This document shows, one piece after another, positions 8,735-58,880 of a stretch of DNA of 64,000 bases. A program made the position numbers and the translations under genes. The stretch comes from Candidatus Kapaibacterium sp. (GTDB taxonomy: Bacteria > Bacteroidota > Ignavibacteria > Kapaibacteriales > UBA4661), in the NCBI GenBank assembly GCA_025358765.1, contig JANYIG010000168.1, positions 325 through 64,324 of the forward strand, read 5' to 3'. Numbering within the stretch: position 1 is the first letter of the stretch; each line of letters starts with the position of its first letter. The notes beneath the pieces were generated by a model. It ran no database searches. It saw only the letters and a list, made by a program, of their open reading frames with translations, and had not been told where the DNA came from.

Positions 8735-8760
8735 GTAAATACTGAAAATTCAGTATTTAC
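8735..8760. promoter_or_regulatory. perfect 12-2-12 palindrome GTAAATACTGAA-AA-TTCAGTATTTAC (candidate operator)
   Basis: Read directly from the sequence. About 240 bp upstream of both divergent genes susC and gpx. Confidence 0.4.
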
Positions 8761-9000
8761 TATTACCGAGGAAACTTGCTTTGCACGACTCAATTATCAC
8801 AAGTACGAGTTAAGATAAAGCCAGTATTAGTAGGGCTTCTATGTCAGTTTGTCGAAGCAATACGATAAAATAAAACATAAACTTCCAGGATGCAACAGAA
8901 ACAAATACAATCTATTGGTACTTTTTTCGTTATTGCCAATTATACGGAGCATGTTCGTACTGTTTTAACCATCCAACCATCAATTTTTTAGGAGATTTCC

Positions 9001-27899: not shown

Positions 27900-28045
27900 C
27901 AATCGTGGCTGATAGATTTTTCAGAGTAAAACATCTGTTTCTTTAACCAAGAAAAAAATCTCGTGTAGGGATGTAGTTTTTAATAAGAGATAAAATACTA
28001 TCTATTCTCTAAATTTATTATTTTTTAATGAAAGTGAAGGCTAAT

Positions 28046-28801: not shown

Positions 28802-28850
28802 CAACAACACAAACAGATAATTCAGGTTTCACTTTTACAGGAAATTCCTC

Positions 28851-29321
28851 ATGACTTTTTCGTTCAAAACCCGCATGACAGCTACGTTTGCTGCTGCCAT
28901 TCTGCTAATTCTCGTTTCTTGCACCAAAAGCGACGACAAAAACGGCAACACGGCTGAAAAGCCTGCTGAACAGGCATTAAAAGCTAAGGTACAATATGGC
29001 AAAATCAAAGAAGTACAACTTACTGCCACCATTGACAACGATCTTGCTCACAAAGGCGGCAAAGTGTTCGATGTGACGTGTACAGGTTGCCACAAGTATG
29101 ATGAACGGTATGTTGGTCCGGCATTGCGGGAGGTGACTAAGCGCCGTCAGCCGGAATTTATTATGAATATGATTTTGGATACCGAGACGATGATTGAAAA
29201 AGATGACACCGTAAAGTGCTTATTGCAAACCTATTTGCAAAAGATGCCCAATATGCAAGTTGATGAAAAAGATGCCCGTGCGGTGTTAGAACATTTGCGT
29301 GACATTGCAGATAAAAAATAA
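28851..29321 (+). CDS. c-type cytochrome lipoprotein (single CXXCH), nos-associated
   Basis: Lipobox LVSCTK, heme-binding CTGCHK, and a distal Met. Immediately upstream of nosZ. Confidence 0.7.
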   Translation: MTFSFKTRMTATFAAAILLILVSCTKSDDKNGNTAEKPAEQALKAKVQYGKIKEVQLTATIDNDLAHKGGKVFDVTCTGCHKYDERYVGPALREVTKRRQPEFIMNMILDTETMIEKDDTVKCLLQTYLQKMPNMQVDEKDARAVLEHLRDIADKK

Positions 29322-29399
29322 CGAACAACGCTAATTACCGCTTGCTTTCAGCGTTGGCAAGCACGTGTACAACATTACAATTACGCGGGAGACAACCGT

Positions 29400-31373: not shown

Positions 31374-31467
31374 TACGTTCTCTGTCCGTCGCACGGCGTT
31401 TGTCACAATTGCTGTGGCAAACGCCTGATAGACGAGAATGGCTTACAATCATTAAACTTGAATATAT

Positions 31468-32508
31468 ATGAAACCGCAATCGCGCATTCTCATGGCAGTC
31501 GCTGCGCTTATTTTATTGTTGATGTACTTGTTGCCGATGTGGAGTATTTCGCTTGATGCTCCACAGTATCCAGAAGGTTTGGGCTTAAAAATTTATATTA
31601 ACACCATCATAGGAGCACAAGAGAATGATCTGCAAAACATCAATGGGCTGAACCATTATATCGGCATGAAGCGTATAGAGCCGGATTCAATTGCGGAACT
31701 GCGGTATATGCCTGTCATTATCGGCGCATTGATTGTGTTAGGGTTGCTTATAGCGTGGAAGGGTACTTGCCGGATGGTGGGTGCTTGGGTGCTATTATTT
31801 GTGGTTCTGAGTATTGTGGGAGTGACCGATTTTTACCTCTGGGAATATGACTATGGACACAACCTTGATCCGCATGCCGCTATCAAAATTGATGGAATGT
31901 CATACCAACCGCCATTGCTGGGTTCTAAGCAGCTTTTGAATTTTACGGCATATTCATACCCCGACATTTCCGGATACATTGCCGGAGTGTCTATTTTGCT
32001 CGGCGCGGCAGCATTTGTGCTGTCGTGCAACCGTAAAAGAATCCTACCAGCAAAAAATATTACCGCTGCGACAAGCGTAGTGCTGGCTTCTTTGATTCTT
32101 GTTTCTTGTGAACCAAAACCACAGTCAATTTCCGTTGGACAAGAAGAATGCGCCCACTGTAAAATGAGCATTAGTGATAAGCGTTTTGCTGCCGAACTTT
32201 TGACCCAAAAAGGCAAGGCATATAAATTTGATGCAATTGAGTGTATGGCAGCCTTTGTGGGTGAAAAGACTGTTGCTGTAGATGATATTCACTCGCTTTG
32301 GGTGGTGGATTTTGCCCATCCCGATGAGTTTTTGAATACCAAAAAATCATTCTTTCTTCACAGCCCACTGATTCAAAGCCCGATGAGCATGAATTTAGCG
32401 GCATTTCCCAGCCGCGAAGCCTTCGATAAAGCCCAGAAACAGTTTGGTGGCGAGCTTTATTATTGGGATAGCGTTCGTCTTTTGGTAGCGAAGGGAATGG
32501 GGAAGTAG
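31468..32508 (+). CDS. nosL: membrane-domain (NosB-like?)::NosL copper chaperone fusion
   Basis: The N-terminal 190 aa carry 4 TM helices. Then comes an internal lipobox-like LILVSCEP and a NosL-like domain with CAHCKM...FDAIEC... Position is between nosZ and nosD. Confidence 0.5.
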   Translation: MKPQSRILMAVAALILLLMYLLPMWSISLDAPQYPEGLGLKIYINTIIGAQENDLQNINGLNHYIGMKRIEPDSIAELRYMPVIIGALIVLGLLIAWKGTCRMVGAWVLLFVVLSIVGVTDFYLWEYDYGHNLDPHAAIKIDGMSYQPPLLGSKQLLNFTAYSYPDISGYIAGVSILLGAAAFVLSCNRKRILPAKNITAATSVVLASLILVSCEPKPQSISVGQEECAHCKMSISDKRFAAELLTQKGKAYKFDAIECMAAFVGEKTVAVDDIHSLWVVDFAHPDEFLNTKKSFFLHSPLIQSPMSMNLAAFPSREAFDKAQKQFGGELYYWDSVRLLVAKGMGK

Positions 32509-32529
32509 AAATGTAGAAAATGAAAAAAT

Positions 32530-33843
32530 TTGTCGAGGTTGATTGTTGTTAATTCCTTTATGACATTGCTCCAGACCATAATATTACCAATCGTTGCGAG
32601 CCTTTTTTTGCTTTCGCAACTTACCGCAAAGACGTTTGACGTGTATCCGTCGGGCGGTGCGCTTGCGCGGGTGGTTGCTTTAGCTCATGCTGGCGATACA
32701 CTGCTTTTGCACGAGGGAGTGTACCGCGAAAGCGGCATCGTGGTTGATAAACCACTCTCATTGCAGGGGCAGCGTTCTGGGGGCGCTGTGGTTTTGGACG
32801 CGGAAAACAAAGGCGTTTCGATTCTTTTTATCAGGGCGAACAATGTTTCGATTTGTGGTTTGACCTTCAAAAACGTTGCCGTTGCGTACACAACCGACAA
32901 TGCCGCCATTCGTGCGGATAACGTTCGCAATTGTGTGATTGAAAACAATACGCTTGACAATACTTTTTTTGGCATTTACCTTGCAAAATCTTCGTTTTGC
33001 CGTATTGCCAACAATGTTCTCACTGCCCATGGGAGCCATGAATCCTCGTCGGGCAATGGCGTTCATTTGTGGCGCTGCGACAGCATTACCATCCATCACA
33101 ACACCGTGAATGGTCATCGGGACGGTATTTACTTTGAGTTCGTTCATACAGCAGTCATCACGCAAAACCTGAGTACCGGAAACTTACGTTATGGTTTGCA
33201 TTTTATGTTTTCAGATTCCTGCGTTTATGAGCAAAACACGTTTCGTCGCAACGGTGCTGGAGTAGCGGTGATGTACACGCATAACGTCCATATGGTGAAC
33301 AACCGATTTGAAGACAATTGGGGTGCAGCAGCGTACGGGGCGCTTTTCAAAGACATTGATGACAGTGAAGTCCGTGGCAATGTTTTTGTCAATAACACTA
33401 TTGGGCTTTACGCTGAAGGTTGCAATCGCTCAATCATTGAACAAAATGAGTTTTTGCACAATGGATATGCGGTGAAAATTATGGCTAATTCGATGAGCAA
33501 TATATTTACGCATAACACATTTGAGGGTAATTCATTTGATGTTTCGACCAATAGTCTCCAAAACTACAACACCTTCCGGGGCAACTATTGGAGCCGTTAT
33601 CAAGGATACGATCTCAACCACGATGGCGTGGGCGATGTGCCGTTTCGCCCCGTGAGACTTTTTTCGTTGATCGTTGAACAACAAGCGCCCGCACTCGTGT
33701 TGATGCACAGTTTGTTCGTGGAATTGCTTGATATTGCTGAACGAGCCTTGCCTTCGCTGACCCCTGAAACGCTTGTGGATAACGAACCACTTCTGAAGCC
33801 TTATCGGAAGCCTTTTTCCCATTCATCGCTTTCTCGAAAATGA
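32530..33843 (+). CDS. nosD: NosD, periplasmic right-handed beta-helix copper-processing protein
   Basis: Repeated N-x-I/V-x-x-N beta-helix units (NNVLTAHG, HHNTVNGH, NNRFEDN, NNTIGLY). 4-bp overlap with nosF. Confidence 0.8.
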   Translation: MSRLIVVNSFMTLLQTIILPIVASLFLLSQLTAKTFDVYPSGGALARVVALAHAGDTLLLHEGVYRESGIVVDKPLSLQGQRSGGAVVLDAENKGVSILFIRANNVSICGLTFKNVAVAYTTDNAAIRADNVRNCVIENNTLDNTFFGIYLAKSSFCRIANNVLTAHGSHESSSGNGVHLWRCDSITIHHNTVNGHRDGIYFEFVHTAVITQNLSTGNLRYGLHFMFSDSCVYEQNTFRRNGAGVAVMYTHNVHMVNNRFEDNWGAAAYGALFKDIDDSEVRGNVFVNNTIGLYAEGCNRSIIEQNEFLHNGYAVKIMANSMSNIFTHNTFEGNSFDVSTNSLQNYNTFRGNYWSRYQGYDLNHDGVGDVPFRPVRLFSLIVEQQAPALVLMHSLFVELLDIAERALPSLTPETLVDNEPLLKPYRKPFSHSSLSRK

Positions 33844-34613
33844 CAATTATTGAACTTAAGAAGTTAAAAAAAAACTTCGGCACGCTAAGTGTTTTGAAAG
33901 GTGTCAGCTTGAGTATTGAAGCAGGGCTGACGGTAGCGATTTTGGGACCAAATGGTTCTGGTAAAACTACAATTATGAAAAGCCTATTGGGGTTAGTGAA
34001 ACCTGACTCGGGCGAACTCTGGTTTCGGGGCGAATTGCTTACCGCAAAAGCTATCAATGACGGCGCATACAGGCAAAACATTGGCTATATGCCGCAGATA
34101 GCAAGGTTCGAGGAAAACATGACAGCACGCGAGATGTTGGCAATGGTGCGTGATATTCGTAATACGACGGCTTCCCATCAACTGACGAAGTATGTGGAAG
34201 AATTAACACGGCTGTTTGGTTTGGAAACACAACTCGATAAGCCGCTCAAAACCTTGTCCGGCGGTACAAGGCAAAAAGTAAATGCCGTGCTTGCATTTAT
34301 GTTTGAGCCGGAGTTGCTTATGCTTGACGAACCCACGGCTGGGCTTGACCCGATAGCGGCAAGTAACCTTAAAGACCTTATCCTTGCTGAAAAAAAACGC
34401 GGTCGAACCATAGTTCTCACCTCGCATGTTATGAGTGACATCGAAGAGCTTTCCGATATAATTGTGCTGCTCGTTGAAGGCACAATTTATTTTCAAGGTA
34501 GTATAAACGAGCTTCTTGGGCAAACTCAGGAACGTACTATTGAGCGAGCCATTGCACGAATTCTCAAAAGCCAAAGCACCAAAAACATCAAAGACCATGA
34601 ACACAGCAGGTAA
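33840..34613 (+). CDS. nosF: NosF, ABC transporter ATP-binding protein
   Basis: Walker A GPNGSGKTT, signature LSGGTRQK, Walker B LLMLDEP. Confidence 0.85.
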   Translation: MTIIELKKLKKNFGTLSVLKGVSLSIEAGLTVAILGPNGSGKTTIMKSLLGLVKPDSGELWFRGELLTAKAINDGAYRQNIGYMPQIARFEENMTAREMLAMVRDIRNTTASHQLTKYVEELTRLFGLETQLDKPLKTLSGGTRQKVNAVLAFMFEPELLMLDEPTAGLDPIAASNLKDLILAEKKRGRTIVLTSHVMSDIEELSDIIVLLVEGTIYFQGSINELLGQTQERTIERAIARILKSQSTKNIKDHEHSR

Positions 34614-35403
34614 GATTTTCAGGTATCAACTTCGTGCTGCCGTGCGGAGCCGATGGGTACTGCTTTATGCGGGATTTTTTTTCGCTGCCGCAGAAGGGTT
34701 ATTACGGTTCGGCGGCGACAGCGCAAAGGCTGCGGTTAGTTTGCTCAATATTGTGCTGATGTTGCTTCCTTTGGTGAGCATCCTGTTTGGAACGACGTAT
34801 CTGTACAATGCCCGTGATTTTGTGGAAATGTTGCTTGCACAACCTGTCCGTCGTTTGTCGTTGTTTACGGGTTTATATGCGGGGTTGACCGTGCCTTTGA
34901 TGGCGGCATTTGTGATAGGTGTGGGAGTACCCTTTGTTACGCATAGCTTCACGAGTAGTACGCCGAGTAGCGGGATAGATGCTTCAGCTCTTACAATTCT
35001 TTTGTTTGCTGGTGTTGCGCTGACGGCGATTTTTACTGCTTTTGCGTTCCTTATTGCTTCGTTGTGCGAAGATAAAGCCTTGGGAATGGGAGTAGCACTT
35101 GTTGTATGGCTTTTGTTGGGTATTCTCTACGACGCAGGTATTTTGGCAATAGTGTGGACATTCCACGATTACCCGCTTGAAACACCGGTTTTGGCGATGA
35201 GTATTGCAAACCCGATAGATTTGGCGCGAATTCTGGTAATGCTAAAGTTCGACATTGCCGCATTGATGGGATACACAGGCGCGGTATTCGAGAAATTTTT
35301 TGGCACCGGTTTCGGATTAGCACTATCGGCATCCTCATTATTCCTTTGGATAGTGCTTCCTTTCTGGGCTGGAATCAAGGTATTTATCAGAAAAGATTTC
35401 TGA
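34597..35403 (+). CDS. nosY: NosY, ABC-2 type permease
   Basis: Start MNTAGKIFRYQL overlaps the nosF stop. Six TM helices. Confidence 0.75.
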   Translation: MNTAGKIFRYQLRAAVRSRWVLLYAGFFFAAAEGLLRFGGDSAKAAVSLLNIVLMLLPLVSILFGTTYLYNARDFVEMLLAQPVRRLSLFTGLYAGLTVPLMAAFVIGVGVPFVTHSFTSSTPSSGIDASALTILLFAGVALTAIFTAFAFLIASLCEDKALGMGVALVVWLLLGILYDAGILAIVWTFHDYPLETPVLAMSIANPIDLARILVMLKFDIAALMGYTGAVFEKFFGTGFGLALSASSLFLWIVLPFWAGIKVFIRKDF

Positions 35404-46927: not shown

Positions 46928-47626
46928 GGAGCATCACCTTGAAAATCTTTGAAGAATGTAGTTGCGAAAAGAGCGTATTGAAAAAAAACATACCAAAAAC
47001 ACACGAACAAGCATTAAAGCCATTCGTGGAAAATCAGAGTATGGTAGATTTTAAATACGGAAGATCACGTAGAGAACGCACAGATTAGGTGCTGCTGCTG
47101 GTATTGGTGCGAGAAATGCGGCGTGTTTACTGAGGAGTAAAGAGGTGTCGGCATCGCTTTCACACATCGAAAAAGAGAACGGGGAAACCGTTACAAGAGG
47201 TGATTTTTTCTTGAGGTCATTATTACTTTGCGCCATTGGAATAGTAATATTTGCAAGGGCGCGAGGTTTTTTGGTCTTAATAGACCGGCTTTTGAGGCAG
47301 GTATAATGTTTGGAATAATTCGGGGCATTGTTTTTGAGGCTCTGCGAAAAATCGTAGTTATAGGCGATTGTCCGTGCAAAGAGAGACAAGGTTGTTATAA
47401 ACAACAATCCTGTAACGAAACAACTGCTTCGGAAAACTTGCTGCAATGGTACTATCCTATGGCGATTTGAATACGGCATGAAATAACGATACTGGTCGCC
47501 CGAACTGAATCTATTATGTACAAACCTATGAAGTTTCTTTGTTCCGACCAAGAGTAATCGGGTGTGCAATGAATGATTCATCCAATGATATTTTTACGAC
47601 GTTATTGCAAAATACGATCAAAAAAG

Positions 47627-47703
47627 TATGACTTTTGGTTATAGAATATTGTGGCTTTTAAGCACATAAATATAGGAAGTGATTATTGCATTTTTGTAGT
47701 GGA
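47627..47703 (+). promoter_or_regulatory. conserved upstream element family, copy 1 (CACAT...inverted repeat plus TGCATTTTTGTAGTGG block)
   Basis: TATGACTTTTGG...GTGGCTTTTAAGCACATAAATATAGG...TGCATTTTTGTAGTGG, about 40 bp upstream of the NHL gene start. Confidence 0.5.
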
Positions 47704-47743
47704 ATGAAAGTAGCACGTTCAATCACGCTATCGCCCAACGACA

Positions 47744-48772
47744 ATGCGTTATCCACAAATCTCCTCGCGCCATTTTTTGGCTTCCATCGTTGCTTTTTTT
47801 TGTGCTACTTTGTGCATACAAGGGCAGCCTGTACACGGAGAAAATACGTCAGCAACACGTATGACGACGCTTGTGAGCGGCGTTGAGAATAATCAGCGTT
47901 CTCAACAATCCGTTGCGCTGTTCAACAGCCCAACAGGGGTTGCGCTTGATAGTGTGGGTAACATCATCGTTGCCGATGCGGGGCATCATCGAATTTGTCG
48001 AGTTTCGCCTAAAGGAGTAATGACGGTGCTTGCGGGTGGAATGTGTGGTTCGGAGGATGGCACAGGCTCGAAGGCGCAATTTTTCAGCCCTCTTGACGTG
48101 GCGGTAGATTCAAAGAACAATATTATCGTTCTTGATGGAAACCGTATTCGCAGGATTAGTCCTTTTGGCGTTGTAACGACGGTTGCAGGTTCCGAGCGTG
48201 GGTGTACGGATGGTTTTGGAACAATAGCACGATTCAATTTTCCTGTGAGCCTTGCCGTGGATAAACAGGAAAACATCATTGTCGCTGATGCGGGGAATAA
48301 CCGTATTCGTAGCATCACACATGATGGGGAAGTGACAACACTAAGCGAGATTCATACCAATAACGAACCCTCAAAGCCTCTTGCACTTGCGCGATTGGTG
48401 AGTTTAACAGTGGACAGAGAAGGGCATATTATCGTTGTTGACCGCTCAAGCTGTGTTATTCGTCGTATTATTCGCAACAATGGCTCTCAGGCTCGTATTG
48501 ATAGCATCGCTTATAGATGTGTGGCGGAGGCTCAGTTGCGTTTGTTGACAAATATTGCCGTTGACAACGCTGGGAATTTGATTGCGATTGAACAAGGAGG
48601 TGAACGCATTCGTAAAATTTCGCCCACGGGCATTATCACTACGATTGCCAGCAACACCAATCATACTTCACAAGCATTTTTTTCAGCATCGGACTTGGCG
48701 TTAGATGCTCAAGGAAATATTATTATCACCGACTCCCGCACGGGAACATTGCGGAAAATTATATTACCATAA
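47744..48772 (+). CDS. NHL-repeat (six-bladed beta-propeller) secreted protein
   Basis: Signal peptide plus repeated NHL motifs (VADAGHHRICRV, VLDGNRIRRI, VADAGNNRIRSI, ITDSRTGTLRKI). Confidence 0.65.
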   Translation: MRYPQISSRHFLASIVAFFCATLCIQGQPVHGENTSATRMTTLVSGVENNQRSQQSVALFNSPTGVALDSVGNIIVADAGHHRICRVSPKGVMTVLAGGMCGSEDGTGSKAQFFSPLDVAVDSKNNIIVLDGNRIRRISPFGVVTTVAGSERGCTDGFGTIARFNFPVSLAVDKQENIIVADAGNNRIRSITHDGEVTTLSEIHTNNEPSKPLALARLVSLTVDREGHIIVVDRSSCVIRRIIRNNGSQARIDSIAYRCVAEAQLRLLTNIAVDNAGNLIAIEQGGERIRKISPTGIITTIASNTNHTSQAFFSASDLALDAQGNIIITDSRTGTLRKIILP

Positions 48773-48807
48773 TCCCATAATCCATGGCTGTTCCACAGCA
48801 GAGTAAG

Positions 48808-48846
48808 TTTTTTGTAGTGGCTTTTCGTCACATAAATATGTGACAG
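48808..48846 (+). promoter_or_regulatory. conserved upstream element family, copy 2, with perfect palindrome GTCACATA-AA-TATGTGAC
   Basis: TTTTTTGTAGTGG-CTTTTC-GTCACATAAATATGTGAC, between the NHL gene stop and the orphan CTD ORF. Confidence 0.5.
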
Positions 48847-48930
48847 AGGAACATTTGAACTTGGCTATGTAATGTTGTAAGTTAAAAACATCATCTTCGT
48901 TCTTTTTCAAAACATTTTCGGAAAAATGCC

Positions 48931-49242
48931 ATGAATGCCGACCACCGCTGTACGGTACGTGTGTATCCGAACAGCGTTTTGCAGCACACAACAGTGGGGT
49001 TTTCATTAGAACAAGCCGAAACTATCGCACTCAATATTTGCGATAAAAACGGCAGAGAACTCACGACCTTGGTTCAAGGTTTATTTATGCCCGGCGATTA
49101 CAGCTTTGATGTCACCACAAGGCTTTTACGCCAGATATCATCCCGTCAAGCACAATCTCAGCCACAAACGCATGACGGCACATATATTGTCCGAATGACC
49201 GTTGGAGCGGCATCGCAAGCGATTCCGTTTATTGTTGGGTAG
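48931..49242 (+). CDS. orphan T9SS C-terminal sorting domain (CTD) ORF; possibly the remnant 3' end of a split gene
   Basis: VRVYPNSVLQHTTVGFSLEQAETIALNICDKNGRELTTLVQG...GTYIVRMTVGAA matches the Por secretion CTD pattern (YPNP...TI.F.L....V.L.IYD..GR.V.TL....G.Y.VR...). Confidence 0.5.
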   Translation: MNADHRCTVRVYPNSVLQHTTVGFSLEQAETIALNICDKNGRELTTLVQGLFMPGDYSFDVTTRLLRQISSRQAQSQPQTHDGTYIVRMTVGAASQAIPFIVG

Positions 49243-49286
49243 AAAATTTCGTCACACTCCAAGCGTGACAAATGGGTAGATAAGAA

Positions 49287-49339
49287 TATGACTTTTGGAC
49301 ACATGTTTTGCCGAACGAGAATGTGCATTTTTGTAGTAG
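49287..49339 (+). promoter_or_regulatory. conserved upstream element family, copy 3 (CACAT-N16-ATGTG)
   Basis: TATGACTTTTGG-ACACATGTTTTGCCGAACGAGAATGTGCATTTTTGTAGTAG. Confidence 0.5.
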
Positions 49340-49639
49340 AAAATAGTTCAAAAGTACGGAAATACATTGTTCTTAAAGAAAAACGACACATAGGGGAGAA
49401 AACACTATTTTTTCAGGCGACGATGGGGGAGCGCTTGAAGCACCAAAAGCTTCGTAGCACGTAAAACTGTTATTATGCTATTGGTGTAACGTTGATGGGA
49501 AGCCTCGCAAGCATGAGCTTGTGGGGCTTTTTTATGTCCTATTTTTATGGGACACGTGAGTATGTTTTTGGTCGTTTGTACGGAGGTGTGTATGTTATAT
49601 GATAGGCTTCGCAGTATGGTCATTGTATGGAGGTGTTGA

Positions 49640-50257
49640 ATGATACGTGAAGTATTCAGTAGGATCATAATACCGTTTTTAATACTCGTGTTAGTGCAAA
49701 CAAGCCTTGTTGCTCAAACATATATTGTTACTGGTAGAATCGTCTATTCAACTACCCCCACTATTGGCGTGGCGAATATCCCCGTCAGGAATACACAAAC
49801 GGGTCAGGTACTTAACACGGATTCTACAGGGTATTATACCTTTGCAGAAATAAAGAATGGGACGTATTATCTTTACCCCTTACAGCCAGGATTAGAGTTT
49901 GAGCCACTTGTACGTACGCTCAAGGTCAATGATGAAGATATTGCCCTGCCAGATTTTAAAGCTGAAGCAGCTACCTACAGCATTCATGGGAAAATCAGTT
50001 ATGAAAAAAGCCCATCTATTGGCGTACCGGGTGTGACAGTGTGGGCGGGTGAAGGTTTGGAAGCTGTAACGGATGAAACGGGCTTTTTCCGTATCAAAAA
50101 CCTTCGCCATGCCACTACATATGTCATTGTTCCTACCGTGCCAGATATGGACACAAAAAATATCAAATTTTTTCCTACAAAAGTTTCCATCATTATTACT
50201 GGCGCAATCATGCGCCAGAATTTCAGCATTCTTGGCGTTCAACCCGAGGAGAGATAA
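49640..50257 (+). CDS. secreted protein with tandem CarboxypepD_reg-like (transthyretin-like) domains; paralog of 53900..54592
   Basis: Signal peptide. Two repeats of the G-x-V...G...V-x-N...T-D-x-x-G-Y-Y-x-F...G-x-Y pattern. Confidence 0.55.
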   Translation: MIREVFSRIIIPFLILVLVQTSLVAQTYIVTGRIVYSTTPTIGVANIPVRNTQTGQVLNTDSTGYYTFAEIKNGTYYLYPLQPGLEFEPLVRTLKVNDEDIALPDFKAEAATYSIHGKISYEKSPSIGVPGVTVWAGEGLEAVTDETGFFRIKNLRHATTYVIVPTVPDMDTKNIKFFPTKVSIIITGAIMRQNFSILGVQPEER

Positions 50258-50554
50258 AAAATGGGAGCGGCTTAATTCGTGACTTCTCGGCATACGAATT
50301 CGTGTCTTTGCAGCATACGGGAATCGTTGGAAATTTTGCGAAATTTGTACAATAAGAGCCTTACCATCCCCACAATATAGGATGATTGTTTTGAAATCGT
50401 TTTTATAGCCTACAGAAAAAACGATTGCTTTCAGGAAAATCCTCGCACAGTAGCGTTACAGATGGCATATTTGTACGTACACGCACGAAAAATATTTTTT
50501 TAGCCAAATTGTAATCTTTGTTTAAACTCGTTACACTAAAGGGAGGGTAACGTT

Positions 50555-52720
50555 ATGTACTCTAATCCAGAAGAATCTACACACAACACCGAACGAGTTC
50601 ATCAAACGCAACTTCAAGATTCTGCGTTTACGGATACGTTTATCCCCAATAATAAATACGTCAAAAATGTCGCCAAAGGCGTTGCTAATACTGCCAGCAC
50701 CGTTACGACACTTGCTGCAAAACTCACATTTCTCGACCGACTGCAAAATCTAAGCCTCCGCACTCAAATCCTTTCCGGCGCTGGTATTTCCTTACTTTTG
50801 TTGGTTGTGATCACAACGATTACCTTTTTCAGCATTGGAAAGCTCATCCGCACTTTACAGGTGATTAAACAGCAAAGCACCGTCGTGGCTTCATCGCATG
50901 AATTGGAACGGTTGCTGTCGGATATGGAAAGCTCTCTGCGCGGGTTTGCACTCTCTGGTGGCAATGAGTTTTTAACATCGTATCGCCGCTCGAATGCTGA
51001 TTTCGACGAAAAACTTTCCATAATTACAGGTGTGTTGAGCGATAGTCCGCAACAACGCAAACGTTTAGACGAACTCCGAAGCCAGAAGATTACATGGGTG
51101 AAAACCATTGCAGAACCAGCGATTGCGCTTCAACAGGAGATTGTTTCTGGTGTGAAAACAACAGCAGATATGGCTGCGCTGGTGCAACAAGGAAGGGAGC
51201 AGTCGGATACAATGCGGCGTTTAGGAGCAGAAATTATTGCTTACGAAGAAGCACTCAATTCTGAAGAAGCCTCTGCCGCCAGCATCGTTGCTATTGCTGC
51301 ACAAAGTTCAACGGTCACGTTTACAATTATTGCGGTTGGCATTGGGCTGTTTGTGCTTTCCATCATTGCAAAAAATATTTCCGTACCTATCCGCGACATT
51401 GCTAAGGCAACGATGGATGTTGTGCGTGGGAATCTGAACGCCAGCGTAGATATTCGGTTCAAGAATGAAATCGGTGTATTGGCGCGGAATTTTAACCTGA
51501 TGGTGGCGCGGATAGGGCAATCGGTGGAGGATTTACAAGCAGAAAAAGTAAGTGTGGAGAGCAAAGTACATGAAGCTGTGCGAGATGCCGAGACGCAGCG
51601 TGAGTATTTATCCAAAAGCGTTGATGTAATGCTCATAGCGATAGAAAAATTTGCCGATGGAGATTTGACTGTAAAGTTGGACATTGAAAATAGTGACGCT
51701 ATCGGAAGACTGTACGAGGGTTTTAATCGTGCTGTGGGAACCATTCGTGAGATGATTCACCATCTGGCTCAAGCTGTGGAAACAGCAGCAGAAGCAGCCA
51801 CCTATATCAGCACTGCTGCGGAAGAGCTTTCTGCCGGAGCGGTACAGCAGGCATCGCAAGCGCAAGAAGTGGCAATTGATGTAGAACAAATGACCACTTC
51901 GATAATTGATAATTCCCGTCAAGCCTCATCTTCCAACGATGTAGCGCAAGCCAGCGGGATAGTTGCACAGGACGGCAGTAACGTTGTGATGCAAACGGTC
52001 GAGAAAATTGAGCGTATTGCCACAGTCGTCAAACGTTCAACAGAAACGGTGGAGCAGCTTGGTGTATCGAGTGCGGATATTGGAGTAATTGTCGCAGAAA
52101 TTAGCAAAATTGCTGACCAAACAAATCTTCTTGCCTTGAATGCCGCCATTGAAGCCGCTCGTGCCGGTGCACAAGGCAGGGGTTTTGCTGTTGTCGCCGA
52201 TGAAGTCGGGAAACTTGCCGAACGAACAGCTCGTGCGACAAAAGAAATAGAAATCATCGTCAAGAAAATTCAAGGTGAGACCAAAAATGCCGTGAAAGCA
52301 ATGAATCTTGGCAATAGCGAGGTTGCAAGTGGGATTGCGCTTGCTCACGAAGCAAATAATTCGTTAGAAAAAATTGTACAAAGTTCGTTGGAAGTTACGA
52401 CGATGATTAATAGTATAGCGCTTGCAAGCGAACGGCAAGCTGCTACAAGCAAGCATATATCGCAAAGTATTGAGATGATGTCCGTCGTGACAACTCAATC
52501 GGCACAAGGTGTAACGGAAATCGCACAATCGGCTACAAACCTTAATGACCTCACGCAGCGTTTGAACGAGCTTATTGGGCGCTTTCGCTTGGAATTGAGT
52601 ACTAATCCCTCAGGAAAATCTCTTACTTCGCACACCACGCGACATCGCGCAAGCCATAGCGCCTTACAAAAGAAGGCTGGGTTTGCTGACAAATTACATG
52701 GCAACATTGCCAAAATGTAA
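50555..52720 (+). CDS. methyl-accepting chemotaxis protein (two TM, HAMP, MCP signalling domain)
   Basis: Highly conserved MCP tip [47 protein letters not shown] 8 bp upstream. Confidence 0.9.
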
Positions 52721-52797
52721 CATAAGGCATTACATACCCGTAAACTGTGGTTTGTAATTTCGTGCTGAAATTAAGTTTATTTATTGATAAGGATGCT

Positions 52798-53622
52798 ATG
52801 AAAAACGAAGAGGTTTTTGAACAGGGGGGTGGAAAACAAGAAGGCACAATGCGTTCATCACCGCAAATTACTACCAATACAGCGAGCGTGGGCGTTCTTG
52901 AGCCATCCGTATATGGAGCGGCAGAGCTTAAAGTGTATATTAGTACAGCAACAATGAGAGGGTTCGGTATTACTGTTGCCGGTGCAATGCTTATCTTGTT
53001 ACTGTACACCGTGTTTATTGCTGCTAACAACGCAACAGCTGCACGAAACCTTGTTATCAACAAGATGAAACTTTCACAATTGCCACCCCCACCAACCACG
53101 AACGAAACTCCGCCACCCCCGCCACCTACAATAACGGCAGGACCTGCCGCGCGTGCCGGTACACCTGTTCCGGTGCCTGATGCTCTTGTGACACCCGATA
53201 TGAAGGATTTTGCAAATATTGATGATGTATCTCGCGCAAGCACTACTGGTGGCGATGGTCAGGATCAAGGTTTTTTAGGGCTGGCAAAGGACGTAGAAGT
53301 AGAAGTTCGTGAGGAAGAACCCAACGCATATGATTTTGTTAGTGTTGAGAAAGAACCGTATGTCGATATTTCAGAAATCCAGAAGAAAGTTATCTATCCT
53401 GAACTTGCTCGCCGAGCGGGGATTGAAGGGAAAGTAAGCATTCGTGTACTCATTGGTAAAAACGGAAAACCGAAAAAATTTATTGTTGAATCCTCGGACT
53501 CCGAACTTCTCAATAATGCTGCGACCACAGCCGTTATGGCTACGGCATTCACACCTGCGATTCTTGCAAATCAGCCAATAGATTGCTGGGTCAGTATTCC
53601 CGTTGTCTTTCGTATGAAATAG
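52798..53622 (+). CDS. TonB-family energy transducer (Pro-rich linker plus TonB C-terminal domain)
   Basis: TM anchor, PPPPTTNETPPPPPPT linker, and a C-terminus ...YPELARRAGIEGKVSIRVLIGKNGKP... Confidence 0.65.
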   Translation: MKNEEVFEQGGGKQEGTMRSSPQITTNTASVGVLEPSVYGAAELKVYISTATMRGFGITVAGAMLILLLYTVFIAANNATAARNLVINKMKLSQLPPPPTTNETPPPPPPTITAGPAARAGTPVPVPDALVTPDMKDFANIDDVSRASTTGGDGQDQGFLGLAKDVEVEVREEEPNAYDFVSVEKEPYVDISEIQKKVIYPELARRAGIEGKVSIRVLIGKNGKPKKFIVESSDSELLNNAATTAVMATAFTPAILANQPIDCWVSIPVVFRMK

Positions 53623-53796
53623 ACAAAGCCATATTACAGTCGTTGAACGATACGAAAAAATACAACCCCTTGCAGGTATTACCGATGGTAACTTGCAGGG
53701 GTTTTTCTTGTTCCTTTCGGAGAAAGGCGTGACTTTCGGATATAGTTATTTGTGACCGTAAGAGCTATGGAATTGTGACTCCCAAGACCACGATAA

Positions 53797-53842
53797 AGTG
53801 GCTTTCCGCCACATGTTTGGCGCGTAAGGAATGTGCATTTTA
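53797..53842 (+). promoter_or_regulatory. conserved upstream element family, copy 4 (CACAT-N16-ATGTG)
   Basis: AGTGGCTTTCCGCCACATGTTTGGCGCGTAAGGAATGTGCATTTTA, about 60 bp upstream of the ATG at 53900. Confidence 0.5.
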
Positions 53843-53899
53843 CATTACGATTCGTTAAGGATGGTTAATGTTTCATCATTCTCAAAAAGGGAGTACAAT

Positions 53900-54592
53900 A
53901 TGCGCTACGTATTCATGTTTTTCGCCATGGTTCTCATTTTCTGCGTAGGAGAAATGCTCAATCTCGGCAATAATCTACTTGCACAACAATCGTCACAAAC
54001 TACCGTTTTTGGGCGTATTGTTTCAGCCGCAGATACAACTATGGGTATGGCAAACGTTGCGGTTACTATAACGCAAGACGCACGTACGGTGAGGACGGAT
54101 GCACAGGGATATTATTCGTTTGCAAATGTGCCGGAAGGGCGATATTATGTTTTTCCACTCCAATCTGGAACACGCTTTGAGCATATAGTCACAACTATTA
54201 TTGTCACTAACACCTCAAATACAATTCACGTTTCACCGTTTAAAGGAACAGCCTTGCAACCTTCTATTTACGGCAGCGTCGTCACGGCGACCTATCCGCC
54301 CAAAGGCGTAGAAAATGTAGAAATTTCGATTGGGGATAGCTTGATTGCACGAACGGATGTGAATGGACATTTTTGTATTCCCAACCTACGCTACCAACAA
54401 CGTTACACGCTCGTACCAAGAATAACAGGAGGAGTATTTCTTCCCGCGAAGCGTACGATCACCGTTACGGGGCATGATAAAGTAGTGAAATTTGCTGTGG
54501 AAGTTCTGCCGTCAGCGTTACCTATTGTTCAAAAACTTTTTGTCGAGCCACTTGAAGTAAACAAAAGTTTGATGGTGATGCTTGTTCGATGA
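53900..54592 (+). CDS. secreted protein with tandem CarboxypepD_reg-like domains; paralog of 49640..50257
   Basis: Signal peptide MRYVFMFFAMVLIFC. Residues ...GRIVSAADTTMGMANVAVTI...TDAQGYYSFANVPEGRYYVFPLQ parallel the 49640 product. Confidence 0.55.
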   Translation: MRYVFMFFAMVLIFCVGEMLNLGNNLLAQQSSQTTVFGRIVSAADTTMGMANVAVTITQDARTVRTDAQGYYSFANVPEGRYYVFPLQSGTRFEHIVTTIIVTNTSNTIHVSPFKGTALQPSIYGSVVTATYPPKGVENVEISIGDSLIARTDVNGHFCIPNLRYQQRYTLVPRITGGVFLPAKRTITVTGHDKVVKFAVEVLPSALPIVQKLFVEPLEVNKSLMVMLVR

Positions 54593-54618
54593 AATAGGTA
54601 CGAAAAGTATGCATCATT

Positions 54619-55113
54619 TTATCTCATCTGCCCAGCAAGTGCAAAAATAGAAAAAAGGTGATGTGCTTCGTGAAGCAGGAAAAATTCTACCCACCGTTCA
54701 ATAGACATCGCGCCAAATCGTTGATGGGTGCCTGTGAGGGAGAGTTCTTCGTTTTTTAGGCTGGTGATCAATGCTACAAGCTCACGGCGCAATTCTTTAA
54801 TTGCTTCAAGGTTTTTTGTGATGTCGTAGCTAACCCAGAGGAGAAATTCAGGCTCATCATCAGCACGATACGGAGCAAATGTTGGACTATTTTCGGTAAG
54901 TATGTGCTGCAAACGCTCCCAAAAAATTTCTTGATACCGACCTAAATGAGCGACTTGCTCATGAATGCTCCACTTGTCAGGAATGACGCGCCGCTTGATG
55001 CTCTCTTCCGGCAGACCCGACAGCAAATATTCTATAGTTTCGTGCTGCGTTTTTAGGCGTTCCATGGTTGAAGGTCGCATTACATTATCCTTCGTTAATA
55101 AGTCAATAGTCAT
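54619..55113 (-). CDS. DinB_2/YfiT-like metal-dependent four-helix-bundle protein
   Basis: WSIHEQVAHL...EFFLLHEAHHL His-rich motifs typical of the DinB/YfiT superfamily. Confidence 0.55.
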   Translation of the reverse strand: MTIDLLTKDNVMRPSTMERLKTQHETIEYLLSGLPEESIKRRVIPDKWSIHEQVAHLGRYQEIFWERLQHILTENSPTFAPYRADDEPEFLLWVSYDITKNLEAIKELRRELVALITSLKNEELSLTGTHQRFGAMSIERWVEFFLLHEAHHLFSIFALAGQMR

Positions 55114-55169
55114 TGGTCAGAACCCTTTCGTTTGTTGGATATTGGTTGTTGGTACGTAAAAATAATGAA

Positions 55170-58100
55170 CTATTTCAAACGAACACCCATCACGAGAATG
55201 TCGTCAATCTGTCTGTGGCTGCTCCCTTTCCATGCTTCCATTGTATCATCTAAAATCTTCCGTTGCTCACTCATTGGCAATGTATGGATTTGCACAAGCA
55301 GCTCTCTGAAACGTCGGGACATAAATTTCCTGCCTTCGTCGCCACCAAATTGATCTTGGTAGCCATCGGAGAAAATATATAACATAGTAGGGGTATTAAA
55401 ATCAATCTGATGTTTTGTGAAAATGCGTTCTTTACCTTTAGTCTGCCCACCAATAGGCTGTCTGTCGGCTTTGATTTCATTCAGTTCACCATTCTGTATA
55501 AAATAAAGCGGGTTCATTGCGCCGGCATACTCAACGATGCGCTGACGAATATCAATCACACAAATAGCAACGTCCATACCATCACGACTATCACCTTCCT
55601 CCTGCTTGAGTGCGCGTTGGATACCCAAATGCAGGTTATTCAAAATATGGTCGGGTTCCCAAACATTTTGCTCAATCACAATTTGTGATAAAAGCGAATT
55701 GCCAATCATACTCATAAACGCCCCAGGAACACCGTGTCCTGTACAATCTGCCACAGCCATCACGATTTTATCGCCATGTTCTACAAACCAGTAAAAATCA
55801 CCGCTTACAATATCACGTGGTTTGAACAGCACAAAATATTCGGACAATGCTCGGCTAATGCGTTCGTGGTACGGCAGCATGGCATCTTGAATACGTTTTG
55901 CGTATCGAATGCTACTTTCAATATTATCCAGCAATTTCTGTAACTGATCGTTGGAAGCTGTGATGAGAATATTCTTTTGTTGAAGTTCCGTATTGGCAAG
56001 TTCAATATCGCGTGCTTGTTCTTCCAAAATTTCTTTTTGATGGCTGATTTCGGCAGTTTGTTCGTCCACCATTTTTTTGAGTAAAATATTCCGTTTGCGG
56101 ATAGCATTGAGGCGATAGAGAACAAACCCATAACCAGCAGCCAACACAGCAAAACCACAGAGCATTAAAAACCACCACGTTTCCCAGAAAAATTGCTCCA
56201 GATAAAAACTATAGGCCGCACCAGATTCGTTCCAAACGCCGTCATTGTTCGAGGCAATCACGCGGAATTTGTATTGTTTGCCGCGCGGTAGGTTCGTGTA
56301 ATATGCTTGGCGGCGATTGTCCGCATCTGTCCATGTTTTGTCGTATCCTTCAAGCATATATCGGAACTTCACGCGCTCTGGCATTAGGAGGCTCGTAGCG
56401 GTATAATGAAAAATAAATTTATCCACGCCCGGGGAGAGATTTATGCTCGATATCGAATCCGCTTTAAGATACGATTCTATCGGTTTTGTGTTTTCTTCGC
56501 CCTCCTCTGCCCATGCCGCAATGCCGCCGACACGCTTGCTATCAGCAAAAACTTTTTCCACGAGAACTGTTGGCGGAAGGGGGTTGTACGGTATTGTGAC
56601 TGGCTCGACCACGCTTGCACCGCGGTTGGTCGGATACCAAAGACTACCTGATTTTGTTCGCCAAACAGATGGCTGTGAGCCGCTTGCACACTCAAGACTT
56701 CGCAAGCCATCGGTAACACCATAAGAAAGGCTGACGACGTGTTTCGCTGTTTTATTGAGAACGTCCTCAACCTCAGATTTTTTTACACGAAATACGCCTT
56801 TGCTACAACTCATCCATAGCCAACCGGCAGCATCCTCCGTTATCGAAAAAAGAGCATCATCGAATAAACCATCACGTTTGGTGCAAGATGTAAACTTACC
56901 GTCTTTCAGTCGGTTCAAGCCACCACTTGTACCAACCCATAAAACGCCATTCATGTCTTCGTACAGCGACCATATATAATTGCCCGCCAAGCCGTCTTTG
57001 ATGGTATACGTTGTGAATTTCCCATCCTTAAAAGCCGATAAGCCACTGCCGCGTGTACCAAGCCACAGCGTCCCGCCACGGTCAACGAGCAATGCGCGGA
57101 TATTTTCGTTTGGCAATCCGTCGGCGATATGATATTGCTTGATTTGACCATATTTGATGCGATTTAAGCCACTATTTGTACCCACCCAAATGGAACTATC
57201 AGCCGCTTCTGCAATCGCCAGAACCGCATCGTTGCTCAATCCTGTTTCAGTGGAATATGTCGTAAATGCGTTGTTTTGTAGGTTCATTTTTGCTAACCCG
57301 CCGCGCGTCCCTACCCAGAGCGCACCAGAGCGGTCTGCTAAAAGAGCATTTACGATATTATTCGGTAAACCATTGTGCAGCGAGAAAGCAGTAAACGCAC
57401 CATGAACGTCCATGCGATTAAGTCCGGCATTAGTGCCGAACCACATATTTCCAGCATTGTCTTCCGTGACGGATAGAACGCTGTTGTTCGACAAGCCTTG
57501 TTTTGTGCCGAAGGTGCTGAACCGCCGATCTTTCAGACGGGTAATGCCGCCACCATCCGTGCCTATCCATAATGCTCCTTCGTAATCTTCCAACAGGCAC
57601 GATGCTTCATCAGCGGAGAGACCATTTTTTGTTGTAAGCGCCGTGAAAGTTGCAGATATTCCGCCTTGTGGATTTGGCGTATAACGATTCACACCGCCGC
57701 CGTTGGTAGCAATCCAAATCGTCCCTTCTCGGTCTTGAATAATATCACGAATATCTTCGCTTGCCAATCCATGTTGTTTTGAGAATTGTCCAACCACACC
57801 ACCCGACTTGAGAGTATTTAAGCCTTCACTTGTCCCAATCCATACCACGCCATCGCGGGCAACCATCAGCGTACGAATATCTGCGCCAGCGATTGGGTCG
57901 CCGTTTGAGTATGAATCAAGGTTGTTATTGTCTAACACGTAGCCTGTAATACGCCCACCTTTGATGTAATTCAGACCGCCGCCACTTGTTCCCACCCACA
58001 GCGCTCCCGTTGGTTCTTGGGCAATAGAGAGAACATCGTCTCGCGTTAAGCCTTCTTTTGTTGTAAAGGCAGTGAATTTCCCATCTTTCCTGTATGCCAG

Positions 58101-58592
58101 ACCATTGCTTGTTCCCACCCACAGCACGCCGAATTTATCCACGACAAGCGACGAAATATACTCGCTTGGAAGCCCTTCTTTCATGGTAAGCGTACCAAAA
58201 ATACCGTTTTTAATAAAACTTAACCCACCCCCGTTCGTACCAATCCAAAGCGTTCCGTCTGTATCTTGCGCCATTGCGGTGATGTGATTGTTTTTGAACG
58301 TTGTATTCGAGCGGTCGAATGTCGTAAAGCGTATCCCGTCAAAACGAATCAAACCCTCTTGCGTTCCAAGCCAAAGATAACCGTCGCGTGATTGGAAGAG
58401 TGCCGTGATATAACTCTGGTATAATCCCTGTTCATTTTGCCACGATTCGTGGATGTATTGGGTGATTGCTTTATTGGGATTCAAACCCCGTGCTTGTGTG
58501 GTGGTGGACGGCTGTGCATAAACAACAATGTGTGAACATGCGACAACAAGAACGCAACAAAGCTGAAGAAATGAATAAACAAAGTGAGTCAT
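55170..58592 (-). CDS. periplasmic beta-propeller (two-component regulator propeller repeats plus Y_Y_Y) sensor fused via a TM helix to a PP2C/SpoIIE-type Ser/Thr phosphatase
   Basis: More than ten repeats of the form GL..N.V.ALL.D..G.LW.GT..GL; TM helix WWFLMLCGFAVLAAGYGFVLY; coiled coil; PP2C core SGDFYWF...AVADCTGHGVPGAFMSM...DGYQDQ. Confidence 0.75.
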   Translation of the reverse strand: MTHFVYSFLQLCCVLVVACSHIVVYAQPSTTTQARGLNPNKAITQYIHESWQNEQGLYQSYITALFQSRDGYLWLGTQEGLIRFDGIRFTTFDRSNTTFKNNHITAMAQDTDGTLWIGTNGGGLSFIKNGIFGTLTMKEGLPSEYISSLVVDKFGVLWVGTSNGLAYRKDGKFTAFTTKEGLTRDDVLSIAQEPTGALWVGTSGGGLNYIKGGRITGYVLDNNNLDSYSNGDPIAGADIRTLMVARDGVVWIGTSEGLNTLKSGGVVGQFSKQHGLASEDIRDIIQDREGTIWIATNGGGVNRYTPNPQGGISATFTALTTKNGLSADEASCLLEDYEGALWIGTDGGGITRLKDRRFSTFGTKQGLSNNSVLSVTEDNAGNMWFGTNAGLNRMDVHGAFTAFSLHNGLPNNIVNALLADRSGALWVGTRGGLAKMNLQNNAFTTYSTETGLSNDAVLAIAEAADSSIWVGTNSGLNRIKYGQIKQYHIADGLPNENIRALLVDRGGTLWLGTRGSGLSAFKDGKFTTYTIKDGLAGNYIWSLYEDMNGVLWVGTSGGLNRLKDGKFTSCTKRDGLFDDALFSITEDAAGWLWMSCSKGVFRVKKSEVEDVLNKTAKHVVSLSYGVTDGLRSLECASGSQPSVWRTKSGSLWYPTNRGASVVEPVTIPYNPLPPTVLVEKVFADSKRVGGIAAWAEEGEENTKPIESYLKADSISSINLSPGVDKFIFHYTATSLLMPERVKFRYMLEGYDKTWTDADNRRQAYYTNLPRGKQYKFRVIASNNDGVWNESGAAYSFYLEQFFWETWWFLMLCGFAVLAAGYGFVLYRLNAIRKRNILLKKMVDEQTAEISHQKEILEEQARDIELANTELQQKNILITASNDQLQKLLDNIESSIRYAKRIQDAMLPYHERISRALSEYFVLFKPRDIVSGDFYWFVEHGDKIVMAVADCTGHGVPGAFMSMIGNSLLSQIVIEQNVWEPDHILNNLHLGIQRALKQEEGDSRDGMDVAICVIDIRQRIVEYAGAMNPLYFIQNGELNEIKADRQPIGGQTKGKERIFTKHQIDFNTPTMLYIFSDGYQDQFGGDEGRKFMSRRFRELLVQIHTLPMSEQRKILDDTMEAWKGSSHRQIDDILVMGVRLK

Positions 58593-58880
58593 AAAACCTT
58601 GGGAATTGAGCAATGAAGAAGGTGTGTTTACAAGGGTAGTAGTACTCCAAGAGTCTAAATAGACCGTAATGCTTTTGACGGAACATAATAACAATAAATT
58701 GCAACAAAAGTTTTGTTCGGCGAAAGGAAAAGTGCGGTTTGTGTCTCAAATACGACCTATAACCGTCTAAAGAGAAAATGGTAGAAACACTCAATAATGG
58801 AACAGATGAGGAAAAAATCCCGTACTTTTGTACAAAAGCCATTCTAAAGCATCAATACTTGAAAACTTTCTTGAGGATTT

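Follow-up and report, generated by a model that had tools for sequence, protein, structure and literature searches.

Genes and 23-bp-phased box arrays between 47.6 and 53.9 kb

This analysis concerns a stretch of 64,000 nucleotides from Candidatus Kapaibacterium sp. (contig JANYIG010000168.1, positions 325 to 64,324), called the window throughout, and a family of short upstream elements that recur within it from 47.6 to 53.9 kb. Six plus-strand genes occupy this region. They encode an NHL-repeat beta-propeller protein of 342 amino acids (aa) with a signal-peptide-like N-terminus (47744..48772), a 103-aa open reading frame (ORF) that resembles an isolated C-terminal sorting domain (CTD) of the type IX secretion system (T9SS) (48931..49242), a CarboxypepD_reg-like secreted protein of 205 aa (49640..50257), a CHASE3-HAMP methyl-accepting chemotaxis protein (MCP; 50555-52720), a TonB C-terminal domain protein (52798-53622, with the longest ORF running from a GTG at 52747), and a second CarboxypepD_reg-like secreted protein of 230 aa (53900..54592), a paralogue of the 205-aa protein at 39% identity. 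The intergenic regions of this stretch carry arrays of a short box, and these arrays, together with a core element that follows them, form a module that is genuine, conserved and specific to the lineage, with an architecture of a familiar kind, probably phased multi-site activator binding in front of a weak core promoter.

Each module consists of two to four boxes followed by the core element. The consensus of the 12 boxes in the window is GTGACTTTTnGnCAYAT, a lopsided pseudo-palindrome of 15-17 bp of the form GTGAC-N5-GnCAC (right half GnCAY), whose left half is strong and right half weaker, on either side of a T-rich centre. When the 24 units of the window and its relatives are taken together, four of the five positions of GTGAC and GnCAY form symmetric pairs (R-1/Y14, T1/A13, G2/C12 and C4/G10), and A13 and A15 are conserved even among boxes that were picked without that criterion. 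All 12 window boxes lie on the plus strand, in five intergenic regions that span 6.3 kb, and the units of an array are in direct orientation throughout. The step from one box to the next is exactly 23 bp in every array of four organisms, as is readily seen when the intergenic regions are written in rows of 23 nt.

In all five window arrays, (G/A)TG(A/G)C recurs at exact 23-bp steps. The pattern RTGRC-N18-RTGRC occurs seven times on the plus strand, as compared with 0-3 occurrences for other spacings (15-31 bp), and six of the seven fall inside the elements. A position weight matrix (PWM) built from the 12 boxes returns those boxes as the 12 best scores in 64 kb; no further box was found in the window, where the next score is 11.8 and shuffled sequences give maxima of 11.5-17.6. 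Similarity between the copies is limited to short blocks of 9-18 nt that are separated by unrelated spacers, and a literature search for the box sequence returned nothing relevant. The observation is real and lies above chance.

The initial annotation had recognized four copies of the element, all of which exist, but it missed a fifth at 50277-50350, and copies 1, 3 and 4 reach further upstream than it had placed them. Copy 1 (array 47628..47667, plus strand, as are all the arrays) has two boxes, with the T of TGAC/TGGC at 47629, in the added part, and at 47652 (PWM 17.3 and 20.9), and its core element TGCATTTTTGTAG lies at 47687..47699. Copy 3 (49252..49304) gains a half box, of which only the right half is present in the register of 49243, and a box at 49266 ahead of the box at 49289; the same core element TGCATTTTTGTAG follows at 49324..49336. 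Copy 4 (53729..53814) has four boxes, those at 53730, 53753 and 53776 being new and the last standing at 53799, and its core element TGCATTTTACATT is found in register at 53834..53846. The fifth copy, IG4, is located between the 205-aa gene and the chemoreceptor-TonB genes and was also detected as a 23-nt tandem repeat. Its array (50279..50318) has TGAC at 50280 and TGTC at 50303 (PWM 22.0 and 18.4), and its core element GCGAAATTTGTAC at 50338..50350 has TTTGTA in register with copies 1 and 3.

The first conserved block of the initial annotation, TGRCTTTYNNNCACAT, occurs exactly only at 47652, 48818, 49289 and 53799, in each case intergenic and on the plus strand, and at up to two mismatches there are eight other matches in the window, which is the chance level. 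Because this pattern had been derived from the four sites themselves, independent tests were run. The ungapped identity of 53-nt modules is 31/53 between copies 1 and 3, 32/53 between copies 3 and 4 and 28/53 between copy 1 and IG4, against a background of 13.3 +/- 3.2 and a maximum of 27 in 20,000 random pairs. The core element, TGCATTTTTGTA(G/C), starts 35 nt past the T of the last box's TGAC/TGGC in copies 1, 3, 4 and IG4, and the last site ends 19 nt before it. A third, downstream block had been described for all four copies. It is present as TGCATTTTTGTAG in copies 1 and 3 and as TGCATTTTACAT in copy 4, but copy 2 has no such block in register.

Copy 2 (48817..48856, boxes at 48818 and 48841) is atypical. 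It lacks a core element in register, its second box abuts its only -7-like box, and the sequence that had been taken for its downstream block, TTTTTGTAGTGG, stands upstream of the first box (48809-48820). This 12-mer is found twice, the other occurrence being at 47691-47702, after the copy-1 boxes, and the boxes adjacent to the two occurrences are 20/23 identical. GTAGTGG, which the initial annotation had read as a sign of tandem duplication, is weak evidence for it, being common to copies 1 and 2 only, the same pair that has the most similar box. A local duplication or conversion flanking the NHL gene may have left the shared TTTTTGTAGTGG and box as its scar.

The CACAT-N-ATGTG dyads that the initial annotation had described are present as placed, a search of the 64 kb with N of 0-30 returning only three, at 48829 (N4), 49300 and 53810 (both N16). 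The proposal that they constitute the operator does not survive. Their spacing is 4 in one case and 16 in the others, and the ATGTG arm is kept neither in copy 1 (ATTGC) nor in relatives; the 3' arm of the N16 dyads is not conserved, because around the TGCAT the relatives read CTGCAT or TTGCAT, not ATGTGCAT, and copy 1 reads ATTGCAT. The N4 dyad of copy 2 is merely a junction between boxes, its palindrome GTCACATAAATATGTGAC arising where the right half of the first box runs into the left half of the second. Judged by these alignments, the dyads are by-products of the box arrangement and not an operator.

Conservation of the module in other organisms

Relatives were scanned with a PWM trained on the window boxes, and three other metagenomic organisms carry the module. 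The NHL orthologue (P0109, on contigs L123/L124) is 49% identical to the window protein, has the same length of 342 aa and ends in the same KIILP. Upstream of it on L123 stands AGTATGACTTT, followed by GTGTTTTTAAGACACAT exactly 23 bp later and by TATTTTGA in the core register, so that both boxes of copy 1 have counterparts, and a block of the 5' leader is kept as well. The first of these boxes has a PWM score of 17.6 and is the only match of at least 8 on the contig. An MCP orthologue (63% identity) is encoded just upstream of the NHL orthologue on L123, and MCP and NHL genes are therefore linked in both organisms; the linkage of MCP and TonB genes is also seen in relatives.

CarboxypepD_reg-like homologues of the 230-aa protein (about 35% identity, from an exhaustive search) have the module before each gene on the contigs that were traced. 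A 3-unit array precedes a 254-aa gene on L125/L126/L127, a 4-unit array precedes a 186-aa gene on L125, and a 3-unit array precedes a 271-aa gene on L128/L129. PWM scores in these relatives are 18.7-21.7 (21.7, 20.1 and 18.7 over the two arrays of L125, and 20.5 in L128). After each array, TGCATTTTTGTAC is found in the exact register of copies 1 and 3. T36-G37-C38-A39-T40 falls in one register across copies 1, 3 and 4, the two L125 arrays (L125a and L125b) and L128. The proximal box of IG4, which has its TTTGTA in this register, resembles the proximal box of L125b.

In nucleotide comparisons the module stands out from everything around it. It is the sole blastn match between L128 and L125 (77% over 102 nt), and the copy-3 module is the sole match between window positions 47000-55200 and L125 (73% over 74 nt). 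Since the module is the only alignable DNA and the proteins downstream of the aligned modules are only about 35% identical, this settles that the module is under purifying selection and is a functional cis-element. Short conserved blocks before neighboring genes can evidently yield a cross-species footprint even at 35-50% protein identity. The idea of a shared cis-regulatory module that defines a small co-regulated set is therefore upheld by its retention in register before homologous genes of other organisms. The set had been described as a regulon of exported proteins; genes for secreted proteins do belong to it, but so does the chemoreceptor-TonB pair.

A scan of metagenome contigs with a two-box pattern gave 94 matches, which is about chance, and real arrays only on L079, L102 and L107; a scan of a genome-contig collection that lacks the source genome, for a box plus GCATTT, gave 19 single matches in unrelated taxa, at chance level. 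The arrays on L107 (4700-4775), L079 (about 3085-3150) and L102 (2386-2455) each consist of three near-identical 23-bp units, GATGTGACTTTTT(CG/AT)CACA. On L107 and L079 they lie between a gene for a Crp-like winged helix-turn-helix (wHTH) protein and a DnaC-like ATPase gene, in a mobilizable element with a relaxase, NikA and HTH_17, and on L102 they stand directly before a Y-family DNA polymerase gene. These arrays are like the module in box shape and period, but the core element is absent there. They were rejected as members of the regulon because of their mobile-element or polymerase contexts and the missing core element; an undescribed element probably uses them as iterons or operators. Because of them, box shape and period are seen to recur in other systems.

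Contig L025, from Logan, represents the same organism as the window (99.76% identity). No single-nucleotide difference falls within any element, but the comparison is too underpowered to carry weight. The window and L025 differ in 45 places, 17 of which are packed into 50173-50271, in the 3'-terminal part of the 205-aa gene and immediately after it; the cluster ends a few bases short of the first box of the fifth copy and looks like the boundary of a recombination tract. L130 has only 198 nt upstream and is uninformative. The nearest relative in a search of 5.8 billion proteins is only 63% identical, and the lineage is therefore poorly sampled; MCP homologues at 53% identity are labeled Ignavibacteria or Candidatus Kapaibacterium. 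Almost nothing is known of transcriptional regulation in Ignavibacteria and Kapabacteria-like bacteria, most of which are known from metagenomes, and the module, through its box consensus, its phasing rule and its core element, gives a regulon of this group a concrete definition.

The module as a predicted activator-dependent promoter

The core element contains nAnnTTTG in a fixed register, as CATTTTTG in copies 1 (47689-47696) and 3 and as GAAATTTG in IG4, with CATTTTAC, a weaker -7 box, in copy 4 and the L123 sequence given above. In this constant register lies its likeness to the Bacteroidota sigma-A promoter (TTG-N17-23-TAnnTTTG). Most copies have C or G in place of the first T of TAnnTTTG, and the flanking TGC...GTA(C/G) is far more conserved than in generic promoters. 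No -33 TTG at 17-23 nt upstream of the -7 box was found in the aligned modules; a TTG is absent from copy 1 and IG4, and in copy 3, copy 4 and L125a a TTTG stands only 15-16 nt upstream. The missing -33 TTG is consistent with activator dependence. Two relatives (L026/L027) have a textbook Bacteroidota promoter before the MCP gene, TTTG-N20-TATCTTTG, and the lineage therefore uses the -33/-7 promoter type. A scan with the sigma-70 consensus gave nothing above shuffles. In Flavobacterium the -7 box occupies -12 to -5 (PMC9723704), and the RpoD motif of Chlorobaculum, from the related Chlorobi, is closest to the Bacteroidetes type (bioRxiv 10.1101/172254).

If the -7 box is placed at -12 to -5 here as well, transcription would start near 47701, 49338, 50352 and 53848. 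The box centers would then lie near -43, -66, -89 and -112, and the proximal box would have its right half at about -40 to -35. The predicted start of copy 1 is 43 nt before the NHL start codon and that of copy 4 about 52 nt before the start codon at 53900, and the predicted leaders measure 43-82 nt in six of the eight in-register modules.

We consider it probable that each copy is an activator-dependent promoter module. One dimeric transcription factor would occupy two to four head-to-tail sites at a center-to-center distance of 23 bp. The promoter-proximal dimer would abut the -33/-35 region and recruit RNA polymerase, with cooperative loading of the sites further upstream. The -7 box, of Bacteroidota type but weak (nAnnTTTG in place of the consensus TAnnTTTG) and without a properly spaced -33 TTG, is consistent with such an activator. 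In this way one signal could couple five adjacent transcription units, namely the NHL gene, the T9SS-CTD-like ORF, the two CarboxypepD_reg-like genes and the MCP-TonB pair. The internal symmetry of the box and its T-rich center fit a helix-turn-helix dimer.

The closest known architecture is that of the BvgA-activated promoters of Bordetella (Pfha, Pptx and Pfim3), whose activator belongs to the NarL/FixJ family with a GerE-type helix-turn-helix. BvgA dimers bind head-to-head, every 22 bp, with three to six per promoter (three at Pfha, six at Pptx), and the last one abuts the -35 region (PMC7250471). The module is alike in its multiple unequal sites at a constant spacing of about two turns and, by the predicted geometry, in a last site that abuts the -35 region of a weak core promoter; a Response_reg+GerE gene also adjoins the array in L125. 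It differs in its spacing of 23 rather than 22 bp, in its half-site GTGAC, which is unrelated to the BvgA heptad TTTCCTA, and in its core promoter of the Bacteroidota type, and no regulator for it is encoded in the window.

The box itself has other look-alikes. A class II CRP/FNR site is TGTGA-N6-TCACA, a 16-bp core, centered at -41.5. The consensus of TnrA and GlnR is TGTNA-N7-TNACA (PMC4335299). The idealized box TGTGAC-N5-GTCACA equals TGTGA-N7-TCACA, which combines the CRP half-site with the TnrA/GlnR spacing and formally satisfies the TnrA/GlnR consensus, and its proximal center would lie near -43. However, the box is one base longer than the CRP site, with a 7-nt spacer in all units, and most units are off the TnrA consensus (T at position -2 in 11/24, T at position 11 in 5/24 and C at position 14 in 9/24). 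Tandem arrays of three to four sites are typical of neither system, and no regulator of the CRP or MerR type is evident.

Several alternatives must be weighed against an activating helix-turn-helix dimer. The first, which we regard as possible though not probable, is that the boxes are not palindromes for a helix-turn-helix protein but direct repeats for a LytTR-type response regulator. Sites of this kind (AgrA, ComE, PlnC and VirR type) are imperfect direct repeats of 9-12 bp that occur in pairs with a period of 21-22 bp just upstream of the -35 element, and promoters of this type drive secreted or surface products. The module shares with them direct repeats about two turns apart upstream of a weak -35; its units are all in direct orientation with unequal halves, and the gene that directly precedes the 4-unit array of L125 (L125:8846-9889), ending 80 nt before it, encodes a Response_reg + LytTR-like protein of 347 aa. 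The LytTR-like domain of this protein, however, scores 19.5 bits, below the Pfam cut-off of 22.6. Furthermore, the period is 23 bp, arrays of three units (or four) do not fit simple pairs, the conserved units are 16-17 nt long and internally symmetric, and the mutual symmetry of four of the five half positions better fits a head-to-head dimer.

A second alternative is that the arrays are operators for an oligomerizing repressor that occludes -33/-35, with the genes turned on by de-repression. This would account for the overlap of the proximal site with the expected -35/-33 region and for the second box of copy 2 abutting the sole -7-like box there, and on the unrelated contig L102 the similar 3-unit array ends 15 nt before a start codon, a repressor-like position. 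It is nevertheless unlikely. The distance from site to core is strictly fixed in four organisms, as contact between activator and polymerase requires and as repressors, which tolerate variable placement, do not, and the core promoters look weak (the first T of TAnnTTTG replaced and no properly spaced -33 TTG), which is typical of activator dependence. Activation is favored over repression for these two reasons.

Less likely again is that TGCATTTTTGTA(G/C) serves a dedicated alternative sigma factor as its -10 region, with the boxes in an accessory role; such a factor might, for example, be under partner-switching control by the neighboring PP2C sensor. In favor of this, the conservation of the core element far exceeds that of a generic -7 box, the element occurs only beside arrays, and a Reg_prop/Y_Y_Y/SpoIIE sensor is linked to module-controlled genes in two organisms. 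But neither the window nor L125 contains a sigma, anti-sigma or STAS gene, and the extracytoplasmic function (ECF) sigma/anti-sigma pair that the initial annotation had envisaged nearby was looked for and is absent from the 64-kb window. Moreover, the core still fits nAnnTTTG in sigma-A register and has no conserved -35-like partner besides the boxes. A sigma-54 promoter (GG/GC 12 nt apart; TGGCAC-N5-TTGCW) was rejected, as the aligned modules have TTGCA/TGCA but no conserved GG 12 nt upstream.

It is very improbable that the copies are a duplicated or mobile promoter cassette, whether MITE-like (miniature inverted-repeat transposable element) or spread by tandem duplication, without a common regulator, or the iterons of a replication origin or mobile element. 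Copies 1 and 2, which flank the NHL gene, do share TTTTTGTAGTGG and a 20/23 box, and the three near-identical units with the same box stand on the mobilizable-element contigs L107/L079. Against this, similarity is confined to short blocks with unrelated spacers, there are no terminal inverted repeats, target duplications, integrase or rep gene, the five arrays point in the same direction, each at a fixed distance from a promoter element, and the module is conserved before orthologous genes of other species. The wHTH protein of the mobile element has no homologue in the window and no match in plasmids or phages. Origin iterons in particular were rejected on account of five separate arrays that each precede a gene, units that share only the box and the lack of a rep gene, and a MITE or other small mobile element on account of the 9-18-nt blocks that are all the copies share and the lack of further copies in the window. 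Weakest of all, and scarcely credible, is an RNA-level element in which the CACAT/ATGTG dyads act as transcript hairpins, attenuators or protein-binding stem-loops. The dyads do exist and the copy-3 leader is strongly structured, but each stem would have only 5 bp around a loop of 16 nt, neither copy 1 nor the relatives keep the 3' arm, the dyads lie upstream of the predicted starts and there is no Rfam match.

An activator-dependent promoter module also has to be reconciled with observations that weigh against it. Every position relative to +1 is inferred. Copy 2 does not keep the register, and the ORF that follows it is doubtful; about 205 nt separate the IG4 module, and 300 nt the copy-3 module, from the gene downstream. 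A proximal promoter of its own seems to serve the MCP gene, MCP relatives on L026, L027 and L028 lack the module, with no boxes before the MCP orthologues of L026/L027, and the module is also lacking in the only and closest homologue of the 205-aa protein (55% identity; L023, among contigs L021-L024). A period of 23 bp, rather than an integral 21-22 bp, would leave successive dimers rotated by about 70 degrees and not on one face of the helix. Finally, no candidate regulator is encoded in the 64-kb window, and the array of L129 is not preceded by a response-regulator gene.

A bolder reading, which we hold to be less likely than not, extends the activator-dependent module to a previously undescribed regulon specific to an uncultured Ignavibacteria/Kapabacteria-like lineage. 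In it a response regulator would polymerize on 23-bp-phased sites and switch on a dedicated, unusually conserved core promoter, possibly downstream of a Reg_prop/Y_Y_Y/PP2C surface sensor. If this is true, the off-helical spacing would imply a spiral arrangement of dimers and not one along a single face, and a new surface-sensing or adhesion program would result, in which an MCP and a TonB paralogue are co-expressed with secreted beta-propeller and Ig-like proteins. The module links small CarboxypepD_reg-like secreted proteins and an NHL propeller to a chemoreceptor-TonB pair and a PP2C sensor, and it offers a ready-made inducible promoter architecture for the group.

Regulator candidates, leaders and neighboring features

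The only DNA-binding proteins found in the regulator search of the window are KdpE and an Rrf2 protein, both in unrelated operons. In the relatives, a Response_reg+GerE gene (L125:3973-4749) adjoins the array on L125/L126/L127, ending 80 nt before the 3-unit array (L125/L127), and the Response_reg + LytTR-like gene described above stands before the 4-unit array of L125. By our estimate, a regulator of some other type heads the possibilities without reaching even chances, a GerE-type response regulator comes next, and a LytTR-type regulator is less probable than either. In the window, the 230-aa gene is adjoined by a gene on the minus strand for a sensor protein with Reg_prop, Y_Y_Y and SpoIIE (PP2C) domains (55170..58694). 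Its orthologue (57% identity) adjoins a module-controlled CarboxypepD_reg-like gene on L125/L127, and this sensor may be an upstream signaling component of the pathway. On L125 a direct repeat, GAACGGCGTTTATACCA, occurs at 8639-8660 and 8741-8762, about 100 nt apart, upstream of the gene for the LytTR-like response regulator, and it may represent another regulatory motif.

The leader of the 205-aa gene is unusually long, at about 300 nt (49340..49639, plus strand), and its fold is unusually stable (z = -3.4). At about 49497-49536 it has a strong hairpin of terminator type, GGGAAGCCTCGCAAGC-ATGA-GCTTGTGGGGCTTTTTT, and the leader could represent a transcription attenuator or a small RNA. No Rfam family matches at its gathering score in the window, the only sub-threshold match being to ssnA, inside coding sequence. 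In the leader between the fifth module and the MCP gene there is an AT-rich 10-bp inverted repeat, AATCGTTTTT...AAAAACGATT (50397-50432), and a second, proximal -7-like box, AATCTTTG, lies 42 nt before the MCP ATG, which suggests two promoters for the MCP gene. The lineage without the module has a 13-nt tandem repeat, GACTGATTGCGAA, shortly before its 218-aa homologue of the 205-aa protein, in five copies in one sample and three in another (L022 120-200; L023 9800-9860).

The 103-aa ORF has profile matches below threshold only (TIGR04183, E = 0.003, 17.5 bits against a cut-off of 23; Pfam PF18962, E = 0.13) and no signal peptide, and it may be a remnant. NHL+CTD fusions of about 430 aa are known from elsewhere in the searches. 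A split NHL-CTD gene was rejected here, since the 342-aa form is conserved in the orthologue and the NHL gene is thus intact. In the roughly 800 nt directly upstream of copy 1 (46928-47743), the sole ORF is a doubtful one of 176 aa on the minus strand (47051-47581), with no Pfam match and an odd composition, yet called as a gene by the pipeline on L025; the interval may be a large non-coding region.

Elsewhere, the 64-kb window holds SusC/SusD genes, a T9SS-like tail, and Kdp, nos and RND clusters. The Kdp operon at 19-27 kb is complete and includes KdpD/KdpE. The nitrous-oxide reductase cluster (27447-35403) comprises a nos propeller protein, NosL, NosD and ABC components, and it is preceded by an Rrf2-family regulator, a ScdA/hemerythrin protein and a cytochrome c.

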